A stretch of DNA of 64,000 nt from Methylococcaceae bacterium (GCA_030693065.1 JAUYBL010000007.1:16710-80709); one strand, 5' to 3'; counted from the first letter of the stretch, positions 4,166 through 61,560 are shown. Notes: generated from the sequence alone by a model not told the origin. Made by a program: numbers and translations.

Positions 4166-5109
4166 TAAAAAAACTTAGCTAAATCCATATCGGAATAGAG
4201 ACTGGCGACTTGCTCGCCGTAACCGTTAAATTTTTCTGTCTCGCGCTTGGGGGCAAAAATACTCGAGCCCAACACGCGTTCTCGACTCTGGCTCCAGCGC
4301 GGATGCGGAACCTCCGGGTTGACGTTGGCATAAAAACCATATTCTCCGGGGCCACTCTTATTCCATGCGGTTGCCGGCATGGTTTCGGTGAATTCAATTT
4401 TGACGATTGCCTTAATGCTTTTGAAGCCGTATTTCCAAGGCACTATTAACCGCAATGGCGCGCCATTTTGATTTGGCAGTGTGTCGCCATACATGCCGGT
4501 GGCTAAAATGGCTAACGGATGCATGGCTTCATCCATACGCAAGCCTTCTACATAAGGCCATTCCAGCACATGAGCGCGCTGCCCAACCATGATGTCCGGG
4601 TTGTAAAGTGTGGTGAATTGAACGAATTTTGCTTTTGAGGTGGGTTTGAATTTTTTCAGCATTTCACCCAGCGGGAAACCGACCCATGGTACGACCATCG
4701 ACCAAGCCTCGACGCAGCGAAAGCGATAAATTCGCTCTTCTACCGGGTTGGCTTGCAAAATATCTTCTAGATGATATTTTCCTGGGTTTTCAGTTTCACC
4801 ACTCACTTCGACGGTCCAAGGGCTAGTAGTTAAGCCCCGAGCTAATAATGACGAATCTTGTTTGTTGGTGGAAAACTCATAGTAATTGGTATAACTGATT
4901 GCGTCTGCACGATCAGTGATGGCGGCCGTGGTTGAAAGCGTGCTACGGGTAATATTGGCATATTTACCAGCTTCAGCCCGACTCACCTCCGGTAATAATG
5001 CACTGGCTGAAAGCACGCTGGCGGCTTTAATAAATTGCCTCCGGGATTCAAATACTGCTTGATCGGTTATTTCGTGACTTGCGATTTCCGTTTTACTTTT
5101 GATTAACAT
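4165..5109 (-). CDS. msrP: Periplasmic molybdopterin-dependent methionine sulfoxide reductase catalytic subunit MsrP (YedY-like).
   Basis: Tat-type signal (SRRQFIKAASVLSASALL) followed by a sulfite-oxidase-family Moco-binding domain. Operonic with msrQ. Confidence 0.8.
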   Translation of the reverse strand: MLIKSKTEIASHEITDQAVFESRRQFIKAASVLSASALLPEVSRAEAGKYANITRSTLSTTAAITDRADAISYTNYYEFSTNKQDSSLLARGLTTSPWTVEVSGETENPGKYHLEDILQANPVEERIYRFRCVEAWSMVVPWVGFPLGEMLKKFKPTSKAKFVQFTTLYNPDIMVGQRAHVLEWPYVEGLRMDEAMHPLAILATGMYGDTLPNQNGAPLRLIVPWKYGFKSIKAIVKIEFTETMPATAWNKSGPGEYGFYANVNPEVPHPRWSQSRERVLGSSIFAPKRETEKFNGYGEQVASLYSDMDLAKFF

Positions 5110-7219: not shown

Positions 7220-8317
7220 ATGAAAAAAATCCTTTGTGTAGTAGGTACGCGTCCGGAAGCCATTAAAATGGCGCCGGTGATTTTAGCGCTAAAAAAAGAA
7301 CCGTGGGCAAATGTAAGAGTACTGGCAACCGCCCAGCACCGCCACATGCTCGATCAGGTATTGAATTTCTTCAATATTACTCCTGACATCGACCTGAATA
7401 TCATGCGTCCCAATCAGGCACTCACCACTTTAACTGCTCGTTTATTGTTAGAAATGGACGACGTATTGTTGAGCGAAAAGCCTGATGTCGTGCTAGTGCA
7501 GGGTGATACCACCACAGTTATGTCCGTCGCACTGGCATGTTTTTATCATCGTATCGCTGTGGGTCATGTCGAGGCCGGCTTACGCACATGGGACATCAAT
7601 AACCCGTTTCCAGAAGAAGCCAATCGAGTCATTGCCGGGCGTTTGGCGCGTTGGCATTTTGCTCCTACCGAAAGCTCCAGACAAAATTTACTGCGCGAAG
7701 GTATTTCGGATCAAGACATATCCGTGACCGGCAATACCGTGATCGATGCATTGCTGATGACGGCTGCCAATGATTTGGAGTTACCTATTGAATTGGACCC
7801 AGCCAAACGTCTGGTATTAATTACCTCACATCGCCGTGAAAATTTTGGCGAGCCGTTCCGGAATATCTGCTTGGCTCTACGGACATTGTCCGAACGCAAT
7901 CCGGAGGTGCAGTTTTTGTACCCGGTTCATCCCAATCCCAACGTCAAAGATGTTGCCTATGAATTGTTGGCCGACAGACCGAATATTATTTTATGCGAAC
8001 CGCTGGATTACGCACCGTTTGTCGCTGCATTGAAACGCGCCTATCTGATTATTAGTGACTCAGGTGGCGTGCAGGAAGAAGCCCCAGCTTTGGGCAAGCC
8101 TGTGTTGGTACTGCGAGATGAAACCGAGCGTCCAGAAGCGGTAGACCAAGGCGTCGTTAAATTAGTTGGCGCCGATTATGATCGTATCGTTAGCGAAGCC
8201 CAGCGATTGTTAGATGACGAAAACGCATACCGGGCCATGGCTCAGGGGATCTCCCCCTACGGTGACGGTCATGGCGCGGAGAGAATAGCCAAAATACTTA
8301 GGGACTATTTTTCCTAA
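7220..8317 (+). CDS. wecB: UDP-N-acetylglucosamine 2-epimerase (non-hydrolysing, WecB/MnaA type).
   Basis: MKKILCVVGTRPEAIKMAPVI N-terminus, ..HVEAGLRT.., ..SDSGGVQEEAP.. Start taken at the internal ATG (7220) with canonical N-terminus; the ORF-track start (7109) adds a non-homologous leader. Confidence 0.85.
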   Translation: MKKILCVVGTRPEAIKMAPVILALKKEPWANVRVLATAQHRHMLDQVLNFFNITPDIDLNIMRPNQALTTLTARLLLEMDDVLLSEKPDVVLVQGDTTTVMSVALACFYHRIAVGHVEAGLRTWDINNPFPEEANRVIAGRLARWHFAPTESSRQNLLREGISDQDISVTGNTVIDALLMTAANDLELPIELDPAKRLVLITSHRRENFGEPFRNICLALRTLSERNPEVQFLYPVHPNPNVKDVAYELLADRPNIILCEPLDYAPFVAALKRAYLIISDSGGVQEEAPALGKPVLVLRDETERPEAVDQGVVKLVGADYDRIVSEAQRLLDDENAYRAMAQGISPYGDGHGAERIAKILRDYFS

Positions 8318-11122: not shown

Positions 11123-13051
11123 ATGCAATTTATTAACCCTACCCAAATCATGAGTGATAGTTCTTTCGAGCCAAGCTCGTCGACGCCTGATACAGTCCGT
11201 CCTTCAACAGGTCGAACTGTATTTAAAGGCCGGGTTAATCGTTTGCTGATGGTATTGCTAATCTGCTTTAATCCGACGAACTCCGAGGCCGAACCCTTAA
11301 AGTTGGACGGCTATCAGCAGCTGGATGGCGCTATCACTATTTTTCACAATGGCGATAACGTCGACCCTTATTTTGCCGGTAAAGCCTTGTTGGCAGCGCT
11401 GGACGCGGGCATGGATATAAGAGCCGTAGCCTACTCATGGATAGCCTGGGGCTTGCAACATCAGCGCCAGGATGGTGGTTTCGATAGATTTTGCCGCAAA
11501 AATGGCAATTGGAGCGCTTGCGCAGCTGCGGATGCTGATGACTCGGCCACCGCGGTATGGATTGAGTTGTTGGTCAAACTAGCTCCAGACGCCGGGATGC
11601 CGCCGATCTGGTTGGAGAGCCTTAAGCGCGCGCACCAATTACTGGAAAGCCTGAAAGATCAGAATAGTCGTGTTTACTTCATCTCAGCCAAGCAACCGGT
11701 TGGGTTATTGATGGACAATGTCGAAGTCTATACAGCGTTATCGGCATTGAGTCATTTTAAGGAAAAAACCGGCGAACCCGTGCAGGCCAAGCTATTAGCA
11801 GCCCAAGCAGATGCGTTGGCGAGCGATATTGTCCAAGTGTTTTGGCAGCCTTGCAGCAGCAGCTTCAGGGTCTCAACCCAAATGCTCACCCAGCCCGGTT
11901 TTTATCCCGATAAGGTCGCGGAAATTTTTCCGATTTTGGCGCAAATGCCGGTTCCCGGTCGCGATCACGTCGCGTTTTTTCGGCAATGGTTAAGCGTTAA
12001 TCGCGGGACTTGGTTCCGTCAGGCCAGTATCGATTTTCCGTGGGGATTGGTAGCGATTGCGGCTAGCCAGCTCAAGGAATACGAAAGTGTAAATTGCTGG
12101 CTGGCGTTAGCTGCACCATTGCGCCACGGTAGTCATTGGAATGTGCTTGAGGAGGCAGCGTACGAGTCCCTTTACAGCAATAATCCTCATCCAGCATCGT
12201 GTCAGGTGACAGACCCGCAAAAAAAATCGTCATTTTCTCTGGCAACTCCAGAGAATCTGCGGGCGGTTAAGTCGAATCAGCAGGCTCTGGAATTGCAATG
12301 GAATCCGGTTGCCAGTTCCAATCATGCAGTAGCCTACGAAATTTATCGCGATGGCAAATTTATTGCCACGAGTCGAGTTCCGTTTTATGTCGACAATGCC
12401 GTTGTAAGCTCCACTCGCTATAGCTATAGCGTCACAGCCTACGATGATTTTGGGCATATTTCCGATACTTCCCAAGCAGTTAGCTTAAACACCGTCGCAG
12501 GCCAATTTGCTACCGTGTATCTGGAGACCAAATCCAATCGAGTCAAAATCCACTTGCCGAACCAAGCGGGCGAAAACGATTTGCTGATGGAATCCGCTTG
12601 CCCGCATTTTCTGAAAAAAACGCTTAGTTTGGGTGATGCAACCCAGATTTCGGTGGCCTTTGCCGATGACAACGGGCTAATCGACGATAACCAGGGAAAA
12701 AATTACTTGCTGACCGCTGGTTTAACCACTATCGGGCGAGGCACTGTCAATGTTGCAACCAATCCTTGTCTGGATCGAGAGGCTCCGGGAACTCCGAGTA
12801 ATTTGAAACAAGTTAGTGTAGATCGGCATTCGGTCAACATTGCTTGGACTGCAGCGAACGACAATCAAGCAGTGACGAGTTATTTGGTGCTGCGTAACGG
12901 CGCCGAAATTGGTGAAACCACGCAAACTCAATTTTCTGATAACTGTGTAGCGCCCAAGGCAACCCAACAGTATCAGGTGCGCGCGTTGGATTCCTCTGGC
13001 AATCAATCGGCCGAAAGCCTGCCATTGCTCGTGACCATTCCGAATGAGTAA
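11123..13051 (+). CDS. Secreted protein: N-terminal alpha-helical (probably (alpha/alpha)-barrel glycoside-hydrolase-like) domain plus two C-terminal fibronectin type III domains.
   Basis: A signal-like segment (LLMVLLICFNPTNSEA). Two FN3 units (PENLRAVKSNQQALELQWNPVAS..YEIYRDGKF..YSYSVTAYDDFG; PGTPSNLKQVSVDRHSVNIAWTAAND..YLVLRNGAEIG..YQVRALDSSGN). The exact start is uncertain. Confidence 0.55.
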   Translation: MQFINPTQIMSDSSFEPSSSTPDTVRPSTGRTVFKGRVNRLLMVLLICFNPTNSEAEPLKLDGYQQLDGAITIFHNGDNVDPYFAGKALLAALDAGMDIRAVAYSWIAWGLQHQRQDGGFDRFCRKNGNWSACAAADADDSATAVWIELLVKLAPDAGMPPIWLESLKRAHQLLESLKDQNSRVYFISAKQPVGLLMDNVEVYTALSALSHFKEKTGEPVQAKLLAAQADALASDIVQVFWQPCSSSFRVSTQMLTQPGFYPDKVAEIFPILAQMPVPGRDHVAFFRQWLSVNRGTWFRQASIDFPWGLVAIAASQLKEYESVNCWLALAAPLRHGSHWNVLEEAAYESLYSNNPHPASCQVTDPQKKSSFSLATPENLRAVKSNQQALELQWNPVASSNHAVAYEIYRDGKFIATSRVPFYVDNAVVSSTRYSYSVTAYDDFGHISDTSQAVSLNTVAGQFATVYLETKSNRVKIHLPNQAGENDLLMESACPHFLKKTLSLGDATQISVAFADDNGLIDDNQGKNYLLTAGLTTIGRGTVNVATNPCLDREAPGTPSNLKQVSVDRHSVNIAWTAANDNQAVTSYLVLRNGAEIGETTQTQFSDNCVAPKATQQYQVRALDSSGNQSAESLPLLVTIPNE

Positions 13052-33345: not shown

Positions 33346-34629
33346 ATGTCATTTCTAAATTCCCTTTTCAAAGAGCGAAAAAAAACACCGGTAACATGCA
33401 GTCTGGAACCCGAAGCAGTATCTATTGATACCTTGGAAACACTGATTCCTGTCCGTAATTTTAGTAATGACAAGTTATTGGCTTTTGCAACCGAAGCTAA
33501 AACAGAAGTTTATCCTGCCGAGACGCTGTTATTCAGCGCCGGTGATCAAGCTGACAGCGTTCTTTATCTTCTAAAAGGTTCGGTCACATTATCGGACAAT
33601 AGTGGGCAAAACTACGAGATTCACGCGGGAACCACCAAGGCGAAATTTCCTTTATCCAGTGGCGCCCTGCATACCACGACAGCACTAGCCGTATCGGACG
33701 TTGCGGTAATGAGAGTCTCGCATAACATTATGGCAAGTCGGCACGCTGAAGCGACACCCCTAGCAGAGCTTCACATTCCTGAAGAATTATCTGAAAACCA
33801 CTTACTGCAAGCTTTTGTGCAACATTACAACAACGAAGAAATGGAAATACCTTCGCTGCCGGATATTGCTGTTAGATTAAGACACGCGATGCAATATGAC
33901 ATTGGCATTGCCGATGCGGTAAAAATCATCCAACTGGATCCGGTGATTTCAGCCAAACTGGTTGAAGTGGCCAATTGCCCGCTTTACGTCTGCGCCACAC
34001 CGGCCAAAAGCTGTTTTACCGCCGTCAATCGAATTGGCTTGCATGCCACGCGCAGCTTGGTAATCAGCTTAAGCATCCATCACATTTTCAAAAGCAAATC
34101 GCCGGTAATAAAAAAACACCTGGATAGAATTTGGAAGCAGAGCCTTTATATTTCAACGCTAAGCTATGTTCTGGCAAGTGTCAGTAAGCAAGCAAATCCG
34201 GAAGAAGCCTTATTGGCCGGACTGGTGTGCGATATAGGTGCGGTGCCGTTTTTGAATTTTGCCGCCAACTTGCCCAAAGATTACTACACCGAAACAGACA
34301 TTGAGCAGGCATTGCCGTATGTCAAAGGGCCAATAGGCTACCGGATTTTGCAGAACTGGGGATTTACTGAAGACTTTATCAAAATCCCACTATTTTCTGA
34401 GGATTGGTATCAAAATCAAGGACCGGAACTGGATTTGACCGATATTGTGGTGCTCTCGCGGCTACATAGCAAAATCGGTCTTACTCAGTTAACTGAATTG
34501 CCAGCGATTACCTCTATCCCGGCCGCCAGCAAGTTAAAGGATTACTCGCTATCTCCAGAACATTCTTTAAAAATCCTGCATGAAGCCAAGCAACAAGTGC
34601 ATGATGCATTGGCGGCACTCATTCATTAA
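33346..34629 (+). CDS. Signalling protein with an N-terminal cyclic-nucleotide-binding-like domain and a C-terminal HDOD domain.
   Basis: cNMP-like beta-barrel region (..YPAETLLFSAGDQADSVLYLLKGSVTL..), then an HDOD-like region (IAVRLRHAMQYDIGIADAVKIIQLDPVISAKLVEVANCPLY..). Confidence 0.6.
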   Translation: MSFLNSLFKERKKTPVTCSLEPEAVSIDTLETLIPVRNFSNDKLLAFATEAKTEVYPAETLLFSAGDQADSVLYLLKGSVTLSDNSGQNYEIHAGTTKAKFPLSSGALHTTTALAVSDVAVMRVSHNIMASRHAEATPLAELHIPEELSENHLLQAFVQHYNNEEMEIPSLPDIAVRLRHAMQYDIGIADAVKIIQLDPVISAKLVEVANCPLYVCATPAKSCFTAVNRIGLHATRSLVISLSIHHIFKSKSPVIKKHLDRIWKQSLYISTLSYVLASVSKQANPEEALLAGLVCDIGAVPFLNFAANLPKDYYTETDIEQALPYVKGPIGYRILQNWGFTEDFIKIPLFSEDWYQNQGPELDLTDIVVLSRLHSKIGLTQLTELPAITSIPAASKLKDYSLSPEHSLKILHEAKQQVHDALAALIH

Positions 34630-34638
34630 TTGCTAGTT

Positions 34639-34731
34639 ATACCAATCACAATAAGTTCACATGCTATCCCTTCTCCAACGGGAGAAGGTTAGGATGAGGG
34701 GTTCAAAATAAAAACTTATTGTGATTGGTAT
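34639..34731. mobile_element. MITE-like palindromic element, copy 1 (93 bp; 19-bp terminal inverted repeats ATACCAATCACAATAAGTT/AACTTATTGTGATTGGTAT around a CCTTCTCCAACGGGAGAAGG hairpin).
   Basis: Near-identical to the reverse complement of 49163..49254. Its last nucleotide overlaps the lptG stop codon. Confidence 0.6.
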
Positions 34732-35834
34732 TATTGCGCCTTACGGATTGCCAATAGCGCCAGACTTAACGCTATCAAACTGGGCGCCACGGCAATAAGT
34801 GGCGGATTAAGATCATAAATCAGCCCAATATGGCCGGTGATTTTATCGATAATGTTAAAGCCCATACCGATCACCACCCCTATCATCATCCGTCCGCCCA
34901 GACTTACGCCGCGCTTAACCCCAATCACAAACGGTGCCGAAATCAGCAGCATAATAAAAGTCACCAGCGGATTCACTATGCGTCCCCATAAAGCCATTTC
35001 ATAGACGTGTGATTTTTGTTGGTTGTCTTTCAAAAAATCGATATATGTCATCAAATCATAAAGCGCCAAATTATTGGGATTGACGACCACAATTTTCACC
35101 AAATCCGGAGCGATAGACGAGCGCCAAATGCTTTCAGTTTGTTGACTGGCGAGTATTTGCTTAGTGGAAATTTCAGATTGCTTGATTTGCTCAAGCTGCC
35201 ATTGCTGGTCGCCTAAAAAGCGGGCGCTATCGGCATGGGTTGATAAGCGTAGATGCGCGGCATCATCTAGCTCGAAAATATTTATATCAGACAAACTGCC
35301 GTCATCTTGCAATTGCCGCACATTGATGAATTTTTTACCTTCGCGTAACCACAGCCCGTATTTACTATTCATGACGACTTGCTCGTTTTGTGCCGTCACT
35401 TTTAACAAACGAGCTGCACGCTCAGCAGAGGGCGCGACAAACTCACCGACAGTAATAGCCATGACAACCAAAATTGCGCCCGCCAACATCACTGCGCGCA
35501 AAATACCGAACACCGACAAACCGGCCGCGCGCATGGCAATGATTTCATGGTTATTGCCCATGGCTCCCAAAATAAACAGACTGCCCAATAAGGCCGAAGC
35601 AGGCATCAGCTCATAAAAAACAGTCGGTGAGGTCAGCGCCAAATAGGTAAAAATTTCTTTTAAGCCATAGTGGCCTTTACCTAAATCTTTAATTTCGTCA
35701 CTGAAAGTGAACAGATTAAACAGCGTCAACAACAACACCAGCGCAACCAAGGAGCCTTTCAAAATCTCCCTGACGATATACCCGTTGATTACATTCACTT
35801 TGTCACCTTGCTCTTGAGTGTCGCGCGCAGCCAT
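34731..35834 (-). CDS. lptG: LPS export ABC transporter permease LptG.
   Basis: 367-aa six-TM permease with a periplasmic beta-jellyroll insert, immediately downstream of lptF. Typical lptFG pair divergent from pepA. Confidence 0.75.
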   Translation of the reverse strand: MAARDTQEQGDKVNVINGYIVREILKGSLVALVLLLTLFNLFTFSDEIKDLGKGHYGLKEIFTYLALTSPTVFYELMPASALLGSLFILGAMGNNHEIIAMRAAGLSVFGILRAVMLAGAILVVMAITVGEFVAPSAERAARLLKVTAQNEQVVMNSKYGLWLREGKKFINVRQLQDDGSLSDINIFELDDAAHLRLSTHADSARFLGDQQWQLEQIKQSEISTKQILASQQTESIWRSSIAPDLVKIVVVNPNNLALYDLMTYIDFLKDNQQKSHVYEMALWGRIVNPLVTFIMLLISAPFVIGVKRGVSLGGRMMIGVVIGMGFNIIDKITGHIGLIYDLNPPLIAVAPSLIALSLALLAIRKAQ

Positions 35835-41984: not shown

Positions 41985-41998
41985 ATAGTGCCAACGAT

Positions 41999-42130
41999 AC
42001 GTGACGCAGAGCGTCACCTGCGGCATTCCCATTTATGCCCTTTAGGGTACGCAGAGCGTGGGAACGATAACAACCATCGCTCCCATGCTCTGCGTGGGAG
42101 TGTAGCCCGAGACGCTCTGCGTCTCGCACC
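41999..42130. repeat. Cluster of four REP-like GC-rich palindromes sharing an ACGCAGAGCGT / ACGCTCTGCGT core.
   Basis: GTGACGCAGAGCGTCAC; GGGTACGCAGAGCGTGGGAACG; CTCCCATGCTCTGCGTGGGAG; CGAGACGCTCTGCGTCTCG. They lie in the 165-nt gap between res and the mod remnant. Confidence 0.55.
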
Positions 42131-42149
42131 GCTGGACCGTAGAGCGAAT

Positions 42150-47894: not shown

Positions 47895-49115
47895 ATGGCA
47901 GAACAAGCTGAGCAACTGGACTTTATCTGGGAAGGGACTGACAAGAACAAAAAAAAATCCGGCGGGGAAATCTCTGCCAAAAGCGAGGCAATAGCAAAAA
48001 CCGAGCTAAGACGCCAAGGTTATCGCGTCACTAAATTCAAGAAAAAACCTAAGCCATTATTTAAAGCCAGAGTTCAAGCCATTACGCCTGGGGATATAGC
48101 GATTTTTGCCCGGCAATTAGCAACAATGCTGTCAGCGGGTGTGCCGTTAGTACAATCTTTTGATATTGTTGGTAGAGGCCATGAAAACCTCAGTATGCGC
48201 GACTTGTTGTTAGGCATCAAAGCCGATATTGAAGGCGGAGATACCTTATCTGAGGCATTGGGCAAACGGCCAATATATTTTGATGAATTGTTTTGTAATT
48301 TGGTCAATGCCGGTGAGCATGCCGGTATTTTAGAAACCTTGTTAGGCAAGATCGCTACCTACAAGGAAAAGACCGAATCGATGAAGAAAAAGATCAAAAA
48401 GGCGCTAACCTACCCGATCTCAGTCGTTGTCGTAGCGTTTGTGGTAACCACAATTTTGCTGATTTTTGTAGTACCGGTCTTTGAAGACCTCTTCAAAAGC
48501 TTTGGCGCAGACTTACCGGCATTTACCCGTATGGTGATTGACATGTCGGAGTGGATGCAAGAATGGTGGTGGATAGTGATTGGCATCGTGGTCGGTGCTG
48601 TTTATACCTTTGGCTATTTCAAAAAACGCTCAAAGCCGTTCAATCACTTTCTCGATAAAACATTACTGAAAATCCCTGTGGTCGGGCTTATTTTAAACAA
48701 GTCCGCCATTGCGCGATTTGCCAGAACCTTATCTACGATGTCGGCTGCGGGAGTGCCATTGGTCGACGCACTGGAATCAGTAGCGGGTGCCTGCGGCAAC
48801 ATCATTTATGCTGAAGCGGTGTTAAAGATGCGCGAAGAAGTAGCCACCGGCCAACGCTTGCAGTTTGCTATGAGTCAGGCCAATTTGTTTCCGCACATGG
48901 TGCAGCAAATGGTGGCCATCGGCGAAGAATCGGGCTCGATGGACGCGATGCTGGCCAAGGTTGCCGATTTTTACGAAGAAGAAGTCGATAATCTGGTCGA
49001 CAACTTAAGCAGCTTAATGGAACCAATAATCATGGTTATTTTAGGGATTCTGGTCGGCGGCTTGATTGTCGCGATGTACTTGCCTATTTTCAAAATGGGT
49101 GCGGCTGTCGGGTAA
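47895..49115 (+). CDS. pilC: Type IV pilus platform protein PilC.
   Basis: GspF-family duplicated domain architecture, 406 aa. Confidence 0.85.
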   Translation: MAEQAEQLDFIWEGTDKNKKKSGGEISAKSEAIAKTELRRQGYRVTKFKKKPKPLFKARVQAITPGDIAIFARQLATMLSAGVPLVQSFDIVGRGHENLSMRDLLLGIKADIEGGDTLSEALGKRPIYFDELFCNLVNAGEHAGILETLLGKIATYKEKTESMKKKIKKALTYPISVVVVAFVVTTILLIFVVPVFEDLFKSFGADLPAFTRMVIDMSEWMQEWWWIVIGIVVGAVYTFGYFKKRSKPFNHFLDKTLLKIPVVGLILNKSAIARFARTLSTMSAAGVPLVDALESVAGACGNIIYAEAVLKMREEVATGQRLQFAMSQANLFPHMVQQMVAIGEESGSMDAMLAKVADFYEEEVDNLVDNLSSLMEPIIMVILGILVGGLIVAMYLPIFKMGAAVG

Positions 49116-49162
49116 AACTTCCAAAAATTTAGATTGTTTCATTTTTATGTGGATAACGCCTT

Positions 49163-49254
49163 ATACCAATCCCAATAAGTTTTTATTTAAAACCCTCATC
49201 CTAACCTTCTCCCGTTGGAGAAGGGATAGTAGGTGAACTTATTGGGATTGGTAT
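49163..49254. mobile_element. MITE-like palindromic element, copy 2 (92 bp), inverted relative to copy 1 and inserted between pilC and pilD.
   Basis: ATACCAATCCCAATAAGTT...CCTTCTCCCGTTGGAGAAGG...AACTTATTGGGATTGGTAT. It is followed at 49300-49430 by further GGCATCCAGC(G/A)GGAGA(A/G)GG-type partial repeats. Confidence 0.6.
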
Positions 49255-49535
49255 TAAATTATTCTTCCCCCTGTCTTAACCCATAGGTATCTACACAAGT
49301 TTTTGGCCCCTTCTCGGCAATTGCTCCTGCATTGCCCTACTACCTACATCCATGTAGGCATCCAGCGGGAGAAGGTTGGGATGACGACTGCAAGGATGCA
49401 GGCATCCAGCAGGAGAGGGAGTAAAATGGTTCTACAACTCATTGATTCTATATTGTAAAAAAGTTGTGTAGATAGTTATGGTCTTAACCCGCGCTTCTCT
49501 TAAGAAGAGAGCGCATATTCTTTTCCAAAATCCTT

Positions 49536-50411
49536 ATGATGCAAGAGCTAAACATCCAGTTAAATAATCCTGTTTTTTTCGTTAGCTTAGTCGGCATTAT
49601 TGGATTGTTAGTCGGCAGCTTTTTAAATGTAGTCATTTATCGACTGCCGGTGATGATGAACCGTAGCTGGCGCAAAGACTGCCTGGAGTATTTGCAACTC
49701 CCTCCCGATCAGGAAAATAACGAGCCGTTCAACCTATCCGTACCGCTATCTCGGTGCCCCCAATGTGCATCGCCTATCAAACCGTGGCAAAACATCCCTG
49801 TTTTTAGCTATCTATGGTTGCGCGGCAAATGCGCCAACTGTAAACACCCTATTTCTTTGCGTTATCCGGTTATAGAGGCATTTACTGCTATTACCTCAGT
49901 CATCGTTGCCTGGCATTTTGGTTATACATTTCAGGCTGGATTTGCATTGTTGCTGACTTGGGCATTAATTGCCCTTGCTTTTATTGATATTGATAGCCAA
50001 TTATTGCCGGACTTAATCACCTTACCGTTGCTGTGGCTAGGCCTGCTCTTGAATTTATTTGGGATATTTACTGATACGCATACCAGCATTATTGGCGCAA
50101 TTGCCGGTTATATGGTTCTCTGGAGCGTCTACCACTTATTTAAACTATTAACCGGCAAAGAAGGCATGGGCTATGGTGATTTCAAATTATTAGCTGTGTT
50201 CGGTGCTTGGCTGGGCTGGCAGACCTTGCCGATGATCATCATTTTGTCGTCATTGGTCGGGGCAGTGATCGGCATCGGCATGATTATTTTTGTTAAACGC
50301 GATCACACTATTCCTATTCCTTTTGGTCCGTATTTAGCGGCCGCTGGTTGGATTGCTTTGTTATGGGGCGAACCCATCAATCAACTTTATTTAGACTTTG
50401 TTGGTCTTTAA
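49536..50411 (+). CDS. pilD: Prepilin peptidase / N-methyltransferase PilD.
   Basis: An N-terminal tetracysteine region (CPQC..CANC), A24 peptidase TM topology and the catalytic Asp context. Confidence 0.85.
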   Translation: MMQELNIQLNNPVFFVSLVGIIGLLVGSFLNVVIYRLPVMMNRSWRKDCLEYLQLPPDQENNEPFNLSVPLSRCPQCASPIKPWQNIPVFSYLWLRGKCANCKHPISLRYPVIEAFTAITSVIVAWHFGYTFQAGFALLLTWALIALAFIDIDSQLLPDLITLPLLWLGLLLNLFGIFTDTHTSIIGAIAGYMVLWSVYHLFKLLTGKEGMGYGDFKLLAVFGAWLGWQTLPMIIILSSLVGAVIGIGMIIFVKRDHTIPIPFGPYLAAAGWIALLWGEPINQLYLDFVGL

Positions 50412-58129: not shown

Positions 58130-59654
58130 TAAAAAAACCGTAGTATTCGATGGCCAGCCGTTGACCATTGAAGACATTTGCCGGATTGCCCACCAACACG
58201 CGCAAGTTGAGTTAAGCCCGCAGCCGGAATTTATCGAGCGTATCGACAAAGGCGCGCGCTTTATCGATACCTTGTTAAAAGAACAAGGCTTTGTCTATGG
58301 CGTAACGACCGGTTATGGCGACTCCTGCACCGTTTCCATCCCGCTCAACCTGGTCGAACAACTGCCCAAACAGCTCTACACCTTCCACGGTTGCGGGCTG
58401 GGCGATCATTTTGATGCTGAGCAAACCAGGGCCATTTTGGCAGTGCGTTTAACCAGTCTGGCGCGCGGTTTTTCCGGTGTACGCTATCGCTTATTACAGC
58501 AGCTGGCTGAATGTTTAAAGCAGAACATCCTGCCGTTGATCCCGCAGGAAGGTTCAGTCGGCGCCAGCGGCGATTTAACGCCGTTGTCTTATGTCGCAGC
58601 GGTGCTGGCGGGTGAACGAGACGTTTTGTATCAGGGCGAGCGCCAAGCCACGCAAACTGTGTTTGCCGCGCTGAATATTGAGCCGCTTACCTTAAAACCC
58701 AAAGAAGGCTTGGCGATTATGAACGGCACCGCCGCAATGACCGGCATCGCCTGCCTGGCCTATCAACGCGCCGAGTATTTATCGCAACTGACCACACGCA
58801 TCACCAGCTTGGCGTCGGTCGCTTTAAACGGCAACGCCTACCACTTTGACGAAAAACTGTTTTCAGTCAAACCGCATCCAGGCCAAAATCGCGTCGCGGA
58901 ACGATTGCGTGCCGATTTGCAATTGCAAGACAGCGCGCCGCGCAACGACACCCGCTTGCAAGATCGTTATTCCCTGCGTTGTGCGCCGCATGTCATCGGT
59001 GTGCTGGAAGATTCATTGCCCTGGCTGCGGCAGTTTATCGAAAACGAATTAAACAGCGCCAACGACAATCCCATCATCGATGCCGAAGGCGAACACGTTT
59101 TACATGGCGGCCATTTTTACGGCGGCCACATTGCCTTTGCGATGGACTCTCTTAAAACGGCCGTGGCGAATTTAGCCGATTTAATGGACCGGCAAATGGC
59201 GCAACTAATGGACCCCAAATTCAACCACGGCCTGCCCGCCAATCTGTCCGGCGCCAGCGGCGAACAAGCTTTGTTGAACCACGGCTTCAAAGCCCTGCAA
59301 ATCGCCGTCTCCGCCTGGACCGCAGAAGCCCTAAAACTGACCATGCCCGCCAGCGTGTTCTCCCGCTCCACCGAATGCCACAACCAAGACAAAGTCAGTA
59401 TGGGCACTATTGCGGCTAGAGATTGCATTCGTATTCTGGAGTTGACCGAACAGGTGGCGGTGGCGGTGTTGTTTGCTGTGATTCAGGGCGTTGAGTTGCG
59501 AGGCAATGTAGAGGCGTTGAGTCCGGCATTGCAAAATACTGTTAAGCAACTGCGACTACATAGTCCGTTTTTGAGCACTGACCGGGCATTGGAGCAAGAG
59601 CTACGGGGGTGTTTGGAGATGACACGAAAACAATATTGGGAACTGTATGATTAA
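58122..59654 (+). CDS. Aromatic amino acid ammonia-lyase (HAL/PAL/TAL family, MIO-dependent).
   Basis: The MIO-forming triad Ala-Ser-Gly in GSVGASGDLTPLSYVAA, plus the conserved ..NDNP.. and ..HGG.F.. blocks. Confidence 0.8.
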   Translation: MSDKKTVVFDGQPLTIEDICRIAHQHAQVELSPQPEFIERIDKGARFIDTLLKEQGFVYGVTTGYGDSCTVSIPLNLVEQLPKQLYTFHGCGLGDHFDAEQTRAILAVRLTSLARGFSGVRYRLLQQLAECLKQNILPLIPQEGSVGASGDLTPLSYVAAVLAGERDVLYQGERQATQTVFAALNIEPLTLKPKEGLAIMNGTAAMTGIACLAYQRAEYLSQLTTRITSLASVALNGNAYHFDEKLFSVKPHPGQNRVAERLRADLQLQDSAPRNDTRLQDRYSLRCAPHVIGVLEDSLPWLRQFIENELNSANDNPIIDAEGEHVLHGGHFYGGHIAFAMDSLKTAVANLADLMDRQMAQLMDPKFNHGLPANLSGASGEQALLNHGFKALQIAVSAWTAEALKLTMPASVFSRSTECHNQDKVSMGTIAARDCIRILELTEQVAVAVLFAVIQGVELRGNVEALSPALQNTVKQLRLHSPFLSTDRALEQELRGCLEMTRKQYWELYD

Positions 59655-59659
59655 CATCA

Positions 59660-59745
59660 GTTCCTCGTTCAACTTCTCGTTCCCATGCGCCGCGTACCCT
59701 CTGGGGCATAAATGGGAATGCTTAACAGGCGCGCTGCGCCCCGAG
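59660..59745. repeat. REP element (degenerate GTTCCCA..GCG..TGGGAA palindrome plus GGCGCGCTGCGCC palindrome) on the 5' side of the RAYT gene.
   Basis: Palindromes read directly; related copies at 60297..60343 and 60768..60816. Confidence 0.55.
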
Positions 59746-59754
59746 TACTAAACA

Positions 59755-60291
59755 ATGGGTCGCAGCCGCTACCGAATTTACGACGGACAAGCCCCACATT
59801 TTTTAACCTGCACCGTGTTGAACTGGATACCGCTGTTTACTCGCCCACAAACCGCTGGCATCATTCTGGATGCGCTACGACACAGGCAAGAAGAACTAGG
59901 CTGGAAAATATACGGCTACGTCATCCTGGAAAATCACCTGCATTTAATTGTACAAGCAGAAAACCTGGCTTTGGAATTGCCGCGCTTTAAATCCTACACG
60001 GCTCGCCAACTGATCGACCATCTGAAAGAATGCGGCGCCGAGCGATTACTGCAACAACTGGCGTTTTTCCGCAAGGATCACAAACGTGATCGAGATTATC
60101 AATGCTGGGAAGAAGGATCGCACCCGCAGCTTATTGAAAATGAACAGGTGCTTCAGCAGAAACTCGAGTATATCCACCAAAACCCGGTAAAACGGGGTTA
60201 TGTAGATGATCCTACGCATTGGAGATATTCCAGCGCTAGGGATTACTCCGGGCAAACTGGGTTGATTTCCGTTTATAAGAGTTGGTTGTGA
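59755..60291 (+). mobile_element. REP-associated tyrosine transposase (RAYT; IS200/IS605-like Y1 HuH transposase).
   Basis: 178 aa with the HuH motif (ENHLHLIV) and a catalytic Tyr block (LEYIHQNPVKRGY). Flanked on both sides by REP palindromes. Confidence 0.75.
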
Positions 60292-60296
60292 TTCTT

Positions 60297-60343
60297 GGCG
60301 CAGCGCGCCTTAAATGCATTCCCACGCCGCGCGTGGGAACGAG
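60297..60343. repeat. REP element (GGCGCAGCGCGCC plus TTCCCACGCCGCGCGTGGGAA) on the 3' side of the RAYT gene.
   Basis: Perfect palindromes read directly. Confidence 0.6.
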
Positions 60344-60767: not shown

Positions 60768-60816
60768 TCCTCGTTCCCACGCGCTGCGTGGGAATGCAGT
60801 CAAGGCGCGCTGCGCC
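60768..60816. repeat. REP element (GTTCCCACGCGCTGCGTGGGAATG plus GGCGCGCTGCGCC).
   Basis: Perfect palindromes read directly, immediately upstream of the thioesterase relic. Confidence 0.6.
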
Positions 60817-60831
60817 AAGTAACTAAAAACA

Positions 60832-61344: not shown

Positions 61345-61374
61345 CCACGCCACGGTGATGGATGACTTAAAGGC

Positions 61375-61500
61375 TTGGCAAAAGACCGTCAAGCAACTGT
61401 GCGAGCATAATGCTTATTTGAATACTGATCGGGCATTGGAGCAGGAATCACTATGTTGTTTGGAGCTGACCAGGAAACAGCATTGGAATTTGTATGAGTA
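61375..61500 (+). pseudogene. 3'-terminal fragment of a second ammonia-lyase (HAL/TAL) paralog.
   Basis: 61381-61500 aligns at about 75% nucleotide identity to the last 120 nt of the lyase gene (59535-59654). Translation ..KTVKQLCEHNAYLNTDRALEQESLCCLELTRKQHWNLYE* versus ..NTVKQLRLHSPFLSTDRALEQELRGCLEMTRKQYWELYD*. Confidence 0.5.
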
Positions 61501-61560
61501 GAACCAGAACGTCTCGATTCCACATCAATAGGCGCATAACAGTCAAATAGACGGCAAACT

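Follow-up and report, generated by a model that had tools for sequence, protein, structure and literature searches.

The stretch of DNA analyzed here (the window) comprises 64,000 nucleotides from a Methylococcaceae bacterium (GCA_030693065.1, JAUYBL010000007.1:16710-80709) and carries two copies of a short repeat bounded by terminal inverted repeats (TIRs). Copy 1 lies between two convergent genes, an HDOD-domain gene and lptG, with lptF upstream of lptG. Copy 2 lies in the 420-bp spacer that runs from pilC to pilD. The closest named LptG relatives belong to Methylobacter MAGs, and the window is Methylobacter-like, within the Methylococcales. The pilC-pilD stretch agrees with MAG contig JAUXXL010000036.1 at both positions where JGI contig L129 departs from the window. 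In independent short-read assemblies of the same organism, contig ends fall inside copy 1 and copy 2, as is expected because multi-copy repeats break assemblies in this way. The coordinates of all features are listed in Table 1.

Table 1. Features of the two copies, their surroundings, and related elements. Positions are those of the window unless a comparison locus (L number) is given.
Feature	Position	Strand	Remarks
HDOD-domain gene	33346-34629	+	Convergent with lptG
TSD left copy TTA, copy 1	34637-34639		Identical TTA on both sides; single TAA in the L122 empty site
Copy 1	34640-34730		91 bp, TIR to TIR
Left TIR, copy 1	34640-34657	+	TACCAATCACAATAAGTT, exact match; 1 difference from the L260 IS TIR
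Core triplex motif, copy 1	34669-34699	+	8/8 Watson-Crick pairs, 8/8 purine-motif triads; architecture as in E. coli TMECO/BoxC
Core stem 1, copy 1	34669-34676	+	CCTTCTCC, followed by loop AACG
Core stem 2, copy 1	34681-34688	+	GGAGAAGG, followed by loop TTA
Core stem 3, copy 1	34692-34699	+	GGATGAGG
Right TIR, copy 1	34713-34730	-	TIR match (AACTTATTGTGATTGGTA on the + strand)
TSD right copy, copy 1	34731-34733	-	TAA stop codon of lptG
lptG	34731-35834	-	Minus-strand ORF
pilC	47895-49115		
TSD left copy TTA, copy 2	49161-49163		Identical flanks
Copy 2	49164-49253		90 bp, orientation opposite to copy 1
TIR, copy 2	49164-49181	+	TACCAATCCCAATAAGTT, identical to the L260 IS TIR
Core triplex motif, copy 2	49194-49224	-	Stem 3 complement 49194-49201; stem 2 complement 49205-49212; loop; stem 1 complement 49217-49224
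Second TIR, copy 2	49236-49253	-	TIR match
TSD right copy TTA, copy 2	49254-49256		Identical flanks
pilD	49536-50411		
Second MITE	49282-49480		199 bp; TIRs CATAGGTATCTACACAAG and CATAACTATCTACACAAC
9-bp duplication, second MITE	49273-49281; 49481-49489		GTCTTAACC, perfect
~48-nt insert	~49316-49363; L021 ~7600-7650; L052 ~4800-4860; L184 ~11780-11830; L050, L180, L213		GGCAATTGCTCCTGCATTGCCCTACTACCTACATCCATGTAGGCATCC and variants
Palindromic repeats (inverted pairs I2-I5)	41991-42135; 59674-59755; 60282-60343; 60770-60819		Built on TGGGAATGC...GCGTGGGAAC / GCGCAGCGCGCC
Direct repeat D1	59525-59660; 61372-61507		136 nt, 72% identity, 1.8 kb apart
IS5-like IS	L029 2811-4271; split copy L090 1-1029		DUF772 + DDE_Tnp_1; TIR GAGCYACTTGCAAAA; ATAA flanks
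Complete IS630-family IS	L260 72-1250		1179 bp; flanks TAA/TAA
Nested or abutting IS630 copies	L259 372-669		Opposite orientation; 1.7-kb contig
Joint, pilC-element to fumC stop codon	L131 3222-3362 (GCA_030694805.1)		
pilD with another upstream neighbor	L261 1437-1800		96% relative; BLAST homology to the window starts at 49481

An alignment of the two copies shows six substitutions and a 1-base indel (~92% identity), and the pair is the longest inverted repeat detected in the window by a repeat finder (I1 and I6). The original prediction had described two near-identical copies in opposite orientation, 93 bp long, with 19-bp TIRs and a central hairpin. Both copies are indeed there, as is the hairpin (CCTTCTCC-AACG-GGAGAAGG, 34669-34688) and as are the TIRs, which are perfect inside each copy; the sizes needed correction, to 18 bp for the TIR and 91 bp for the element, since the larger figures count one flanking base of the target-site duplication (TSD) on each side. 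No special meaning attaches to the inverted arrangement that had also been emphasized, as the copies are two independent insertions 14.4 kb apart. In the window, the TIR pattern yielded four exact arms and, at up to three mismatches, five matches compared with 0.2 expected from shuffled sequences. As RNA, the element folds into a long hairpin on either strand, at -44 kcal/mol (z = -7.2) on one and -42 kcal/mol (z ~ -7) on the other. The excess of matches over the shuffles, together with the z score of the fold, indicates that the two-copy TIR pattern did not arise by chance.

A scan of one genome per species, using a two-arm pattern that demanded 13 conserved bases per arm, returned 104 loci, every one of them in the Methylococcales (Methylobacter, Methyloglobulus, Methylomarinum, MAGs, and the isolate M. 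tundripaludum OWC-G53F). Full copies extracted from these loci number 108, giving at least 108 in ~22 Methylococcales genomes, and 89 of the 108 are exactly 91 bp long. Scanning metagenomes with a single arm gave at least 120 loci, mostly further copies. Counts per genome, which are lower bounds because both scans needed conserved arms (a bias that affects copy counts and arm conservation alike), reached at least 32 in Methylobacter GFS_3396, at least 23 in Methyloglobulus TF_21, and 12 in a long-read Methylococcales assembly. The 32 copies of GFS_3396 have a mean identity of 98%, with 121 of 496 pairs identical. Copies are homogeneous within a genome and subfamilies differ between genomes, a pattern of lineage-specific bursts. 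Apart from one probably spurious case, no ORF of 120 or more codons runs across any copy, and all 187 copies analyzed for gene context are intergenic. Our literature search found no earlier description of MITEs in methanotrophs. When viral contigs were scanned with a single arm, the 11 matches were all one-armed and inside coding sequence of low-GC contigs, and we regard them as chance. Extra CCCAAT/CCAAT units occur at the TIR tip of some copies (e.g., TACCAATACCAATCCCAATCCCAATAAG), at left ends in L049 (~1731-1760), L055, L092, and L107 and at a right end in L103; they suggest slippage of a short repeat internal to the TIR.

The lptG locus offers a direct comparison of filled and empty sites. 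The junction of lptG and the HDOD-domain gene, with gene order kept, is present without the element in L126-L128 (98% LptG identity), L122 (96%), and L123-L125 (86%), where just 2-7 bp separate the two stop codons. The empty site of L122 reads GCAATAACTATCAG, compared with GCAATAA[element]TAACTAGCAA in the window, and contains a single TAA; read over a longer stretch, L122 has GCAATAACTATCAGTTAAT where the window has GCAATAA[91 bp]TAACTAGCAATTAAT. L123 belongs to MAG JABFRC, which holds copies elsewhere (L044, L049), and its empty site is therefore not due to absence of the family. The original prediction placed the last base before the lptG stop within the element. Instead, the stop codon itself (34731-34733, TTA on the plus strand) is the right copy of the TSD and lies outside the element, and the LptG C-terminus (...IRKAQ*) is intact beside it. 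From this alignment, the element appears to have inserted into the TAA stop codon of lptG, the duplication restoring the stop. A second pair of sites is provided by a 1.46-kb IS5-like IS that is intact in L029 and split by a copy of the element in L090; the empty site contains a single TTA. The 8-kb block of L029 that holds this IS also contains ISAs1-like and IS1595-like transposases.

These sites bear on whether the repeat might instead be a terminator or RNA-stability hairpin of ancient origin, conserved and fixed at two gene ends, a reading that the original prediction tied to occurrence at these two sites only and retention in all relatives. The strong fold of each strand would suit such a role, as would the 94 gene 3' ends that lie within 150 nt of the 187 copies. 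However, relatives whose LptG is 86-98% identical have an empty site, which favors mobility, and hundreds of dispersed copies with target duplications are not what a fixed hairpin would leave. More than half of the copies (103/187) lie over 150 nt from any gene end, and the interior shows no bias in orientation with respect to the upstream gene (44 vs 37, P = 0.5). A scan of both window elements on both strands for intrinsic terminators found no G+C-rich hairpin with a T-run, nor did the window copies contain a sigma-70 promoter consensus. The proposed role of copy 1 as a terminator or stability element for lptFG is accordingly unsupported, there being no T-run after either hairpin and no orientation bias. 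As the primary identity of the element, a terminator or stability hairpin is refuted, and we assign that reading almost no probability. At gathering score, Rfam models matched only a tRNA-Asp in the whole window, and a permissive search over copy 1 gave a best hit with E = 0.15 and 20 bits against a gathering score of 62. For the PIT motifs of E. coli, promoter and terminator activity have been reported absent (PMC4666352). There is no evidence of a host function for the element.

Identical 3-bp flanks were found in 83 of 102 genome copies (TAA 40, TTA 39, TGA 4). The metagenome copies, an independent set, had them in 61 of 76 cases (TTA 31, TAA 27, TCA 3). The 3-bp duplication is therefore present in 144 of 178 scorable copies, with totals of 67 TAA, 70 TTA, 4 TGA, and 3 TCA; TAA or TTA account for 95%, and the type is TNA. 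None of the other duplication lengths tried on the genome copies fits. The flanking context is roughly palindromic, R-W-S|TWA|S-W-Y, and centered on the middle base, a symmetry expected with a dimeric transposase. In the IS630/Tc1/mariner group, a TA target with a 2-bp duplication has been held to be exclusive (PMC2170065), whereas the empty sites described here call for 3 bp. Four observations speak against a TA target. If only TA were duplicated and the element started with CC, empty sites like TAATATAA would result, and none were seen. If the target were TA plus one extra base, that base would have to switch ends within one subfamily, as copies with TAA and TTA flanks share the same interior orientation. 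No TA duplication can be read into TGA or TCA flanks, and the target symmetry centers on the middle base. In 10 of 187 copies, the TSD is the stop codon of the neighboring gene. A preference for TAA/TTA targets, combined with restoration of the stop by the duplication, accounts for these insertions, and a functional explanation is unneeded.

No transposase gene was found in the 64-kb window. When 770 kb of genome loci together with the window were searched for TIRs, allowing up to three mismatches, just extra copies and one truncated arm (L047) came up rather than a parent IS. Two pairs of TIRs 1.4 kb apart, in L207 and L225, turned out to be separate copies flanking rpoH and a response-regulator gene. 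On metagenome contigs L170, L220, and L235, however, an arm is followed by sequence that is not from the element, the opposite strand of which encodes LPPYSPELNPVEQIW, the C-terminal part of a DDE transposase of the IS630 type; L257-L259 also carry such IS ends with the transposase C-terminus. A protein search with this C-terminal fragment returned 134 short DDE_3 proteins, some of them named Methylobacter or Methyloprofundus transposases. L257, L258, and L259 were rejected as full parents, being truncated or nested IS630 copies with no recognizable left end. In L259, two copies of the parent family are nested or abut beside an IS5-type DDE_Tnp_1 gene.

A complete IS is present in L260, and both of its TIRs are exactly TACCAATCCCAATAAGTT, the TIR of copy 2. 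The transposase of this IS is spread over three frames; with the frames joined, it scores 229.5 bits (cutoff 100) with the NCBIfam model NF033545 (IS630 family transposase), a score that required two frame corrections in the sole complete IS recovered with these TIRs. Its Pfam domains are DDE_3 together with HTH_29, HTH_33, and HTH_32. Plasmid relatives of the protein match in two pieces, some of them annotated as a wHTH ORF and a DDE ORF, and one frame change of L260 therefore probably reflects a two-ORF organization; the other is probably decay. Past the TIR, the left IS end resembles the element over only ~8 more bases, and the interior of the element is not IS sequence. The TIR of copy 1 differs from that of the L260 IS at arm position 9 only, with A instead of C, and this position also varies among related ISs. 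Among 27 cases of changed arms in the family, 26 are changed on one side, the sole symmetric change being the A/A of copy 1 at position 9. With nearly all changes one-sided, nothing points to selection for pairing of the arms.

Seven related full-length IS630 elements on annotated plasmids, with 42-51% transposase identity, have TACCA termini and identical TNA flanks: TAA in Moraxella osloensis and Photobacterium toruni, TCA in Polaromonas JS666 and Aeromonas media, and TGA in Azospirillum (ISAli3), Spartinivicinus, and Skermanella. In Polaromonas JS666, the interrupted TauD gene is back in frame with a single TCA. As read from these flanks, the 3-bp TNA duplication is a property of the IS clade (8/8 full-length elements, including L260).

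A 3-bp TWA/TNA duplication is also the hallmark of PIF/Harbinger and of the IS1031 and IS427 groups of IS5. The element could on this basis be taken for a Tourist-like MITE moved by an IS5-family or PIF/Harbinger-type transposase, all the more as the same genomes contain IS5-like transposases. The ends argue otherwise. The TIRs of the IS5-like IS of L029 are unrelated (GAGCYACTTGCAAAA), the exact 18-bp TIR belongs to an IS with an IS630-family transposase, and the TNA duplication is shared by all eight full-length elements of the IS630 clade. We therefore regard mobilization by an IS5- or Harbinger-type enzyme as highly improbable. The repeated IS5-like, ISAs1-like, and IS1595-like transposases of L029 were each rejected as the parent, having other ends.

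Taken together, the element is small and non-coding, has TIRs shared with an IS, is flanked by a TSD, and occurs as dispersed copies at sites that are filled in some genomes and empty in others, in keeping with the general features of MITEs (PMC3184786). We consider it very probable, from sequence comparison, that the 91-bp repeat is a MITE, a transposase-less derivative of an IS630-family IS found in the Methylococcales (Methylobacter, Methyloglobulus, Methylomarinum). The original prediction of a recently mobilized, non-autonomous MITE-like element is borne out in this respect by the copies, the TSDs, the cognate transposase, and the empty sites. We infer that the element transposes. In the model that we favor, an IS630 transposase supplied in trans would bind both TIRs and then excise the element, which would integrate at TNA through cuts staggered by 3 nt, and repair would then duplicate the TNA. 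Where the target is a TAA stop codon, the duplication would remake the stop and leave the gene unharmed, which would explain why insertion flush against gene ends is tolerated.

The interior of the element has an architecture of its own. The 31-nt core of copy 1, CCTTCTCCAACGGGAGAAGGTTAGGATGAGG, consists of the blocks CCTTCTCC-AACG-GGAGAAGG-TTA-GGATGAGG, the first two of which form the hairpin described above. Set antiparallel to the purine block, the third block offers G*G, A*A, or T*A at 8/8 positions and would thus complete a purine-motif triplex. Both window copies have 8/8 pairs and 8/8 triads. The arrangement falls within the published definition of such motifs, namely pyrimidine, purine, and G/A/T blocks with stems of 6-15 nt, loops of 1-6 nt, and at most one mismatch (PMC4666352). 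Among 131 unique family members, 84 have 8/8 pairs together with 8/8 triads and 113 have at least seven of each, compared with a rate of 0.0007 for 8/8 triads in control 8-mers from the same elements. The three stems are conserved like the TIRs, even though they were not used in finding the copies. Loop 1 varies (AGCG, TGCT, AAAG, AGTG, AGAG, AACG), as does loop 2 (TTA, CCA, CTA, CTG, TCA), and the third strand is almost only GGATGAGG or GGTTGAGG, which differ in A versus T and are both compatible with a triplex. The stems look as if they are under constraint, with counts that are inflated by shared descent within subfamilies. In the CBDCZN subfamily, the hairpin has been lost.

Similar motifs are known from E. 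coli and other bacteria as BoxC, PIT, or TMECO (Holder et al. 2015, PMC4666352), with the same order of pyrimidine stem, 4-nt loop, purine stem, TTA loop, and G/A/T third strand. An E. coli copy that we read directly is CCCTCGCCCC-TCTG-GGGAGAGGG-TTA-GGGTGAGGGG. Like the element studied here, these motifs are always intergenic, show no strand bias, and often occur as inverted pairs (PMC4666352). Two differences stand out. The Methylococcales stems are richer in A/T (CCTTCTCC/GGAGAAGG/GGATGAGG vs CCCTCGCCCC/GGGAGAGGG/GGGTGAGGGG) and several positions differ, and the Methylococcales motif sits inside a TIR-bounded, TSD-making element, whereas for the E. coli motif no transposon link was found. 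G-rich variants (GGGAGAGGG...GGGTGAGGG) coexist with A-rich ones in the same Methylococcales loci. By base pattern, the element carries as its interior cargo a putative pyrimidine-purine-purine intrastrand triplex motif of the BoxC/PIT/TMECO type.

This resemblance raises the alternative that the triplex is the real unit, a REP/BoxC-type palindrome whose spread is due to a RAYT-type (IS200/IS605-like) enzyme or to recombination, and that the outer repeats are incidental. In line with independent spread, the fetched loci contain 75 occurrences of the core module that do not belong to TIR-bounded copies, and these often form inverted pairs of one G-rich and one A-rich module. The core module is also found within the second, unrelated repeat of the window. 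The boundaries nevertheless fit the larger unit. The duplication sits exactly outside the 18-bp TIRs, the empty sites correspond to removal of the whole 91 bp plus one TNA, and the arms match the IS630 IS. To our knowledge, elements of the REP/RAYT type make no target duplications. The hallmarks of REPs are a 20-40 bp palindrome and a GTAG or CGTC head (PMC3733652), compared with 91 bp, a TACC head, and a 3-bp duplication in this element. Spread of the triplex by a REP-type route is thus very unlikely as an account of the 91-bp repeat, and we retain its reading as an IS630-derived MITE.

The second, unrelated MITE adjoins copy 2. It is flanked by a perfect 9-bp duplication, and its empty site is present in the relative L261 (cctgtcttaactcg). 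Elsewhere, members of this second family are ~175 bp long and usually have two inverted triplex modules, with 9-bp duplications in 3/8 copies. The third partial match noted by the earlier reader (49361-49393) is part of this second MITE. A ~48-nt insert recurs in the triplex-hairpin loop of both MITE families and looks like a third small repeat, targeting or tolerated in that loop. Further repeats of the window, unrelated to the 91-bp element, comprise palindromic repeats at four places. A direct repeat, D1, is also present.

For copy 2 itself, an empty site was not found, as all assemblies with an identical PilC carry the element. In a relative with 80% PilD identity, pilC and pilD abut with no spacer. 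In the 96% relative (L261), where pilD has another upstream neighbor and BLAST homology to the window starts at 49481, a further ~20-nt stretch just right of copy 2 is similar by eye. In L131, the junction of pilC and the element runs on into the fumC stop codon. The joints in L131 and L261 may result from recombination between copies or may be assembly chimeras.

The triplex motif is thus found in two unrelated Methylococcales MITEs, the 91-bp IS630-type element with its 3-bp TSD and the ~175-200 bp element with other TIRs and a 9-bp TSD. According to Holder et al., the origin of the widespread triplex motifs is unknown, and these authors never found them with transposases (PMC4666352). We tentatively raise the possibility, which we consider somewhat unlikely on present evidence, that the BoxC/PIT-type triplex motif is a module under selection and is carried through genomes by MITEs as cargo. 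If so, this would account for where BoxC/PIT/TMECO motifs came from and how they were dispersed in E. coli, cyanobacteria, and many other bacteria, and it would suggest that the motif has an effect that serves either transposition or the host. With a BoxC/PIT-like motif found inside a mobile element, hitch-hiking on MITEs becomes a concrete and testable answer to the question posed by Holder et al. Linked to this reading, one IS630 clade would integrate with a stagger of 3 nt instead of 2 nt. An IS630 clade with 3-bp TNA duplications, ISAli3 included, bears on how transposases set the target stagger. Our search of the literature on IS630 for TWA, TNA, or 3-bp duplications found nothing relevant; ISfinder may already record them. 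For methanotrophs, the results contribute a MITE family whose parent IS has been identified, whose target is defined, and for which empty sites are documented. A practical consequence is that short-read assemblies of Methylococcales MAGs break at these repeats, which are also located at apparent rearrangement joints.

RUP of Streptococcus pneumoniae, Correia elements of Neisseria, and the eukaryotic Stowaway elements are MITEs associated with IS630/Tc1-mariner-type transposition, with links to IS630-Spn1 and to TA targets. The Methylococcales element resembles them in its size of ~100 bp, lack of coding capacity, perfect TIRs shared with an IS, long hairpin, and IS630-family parent transposase, as well as in being intergenic and multi-copy with empty and filled sites between relatives. 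It differs in its 3-bp TNA duplication (not TA), its unrelated TIR, its Methylococcales host, and an interior that is a putative triplex rather than IS-derived. Nezha of Anabaena and Nostoc likewise has TIRs that match an IS and a recent mobility inferred from empty and filled orthologous sites (PMC3184786). Nezha is, however, 130-170 bp long and cyanobacterial, with another TIR and no triplex core described (PMC3184786). The parent IS shares with ISY100 (PMC2170065) and with ISAli3 of Azospirillum an NF033545 transposase with an N-terminal HTH and a DDE domain, a length of ~1.1-1.2 kb, and short TIRs. ISY100 uses almost only TA with a 2-bp duplication (PMC2170065), in contrast to the 3-bp TNA of the TACCA-ended clade to which ISAli3 belongs. 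Tourist elements and mPing (PIF/Harbinger; PMC4561436, PMC2836001) have the same TAA/TTA 3-bp duplication and small size but are eukaryotic and belong to another transposase superfamily. Set against these systems, the element represents a new MITE family of a known type, less ordinary in its 3-bp-duplicating IS630 parent clade, its triplex cargo, and its frequent, harmless insertion into stop codons; within the literature examined, such triplex cargo had not been tied to mobile DNA before.
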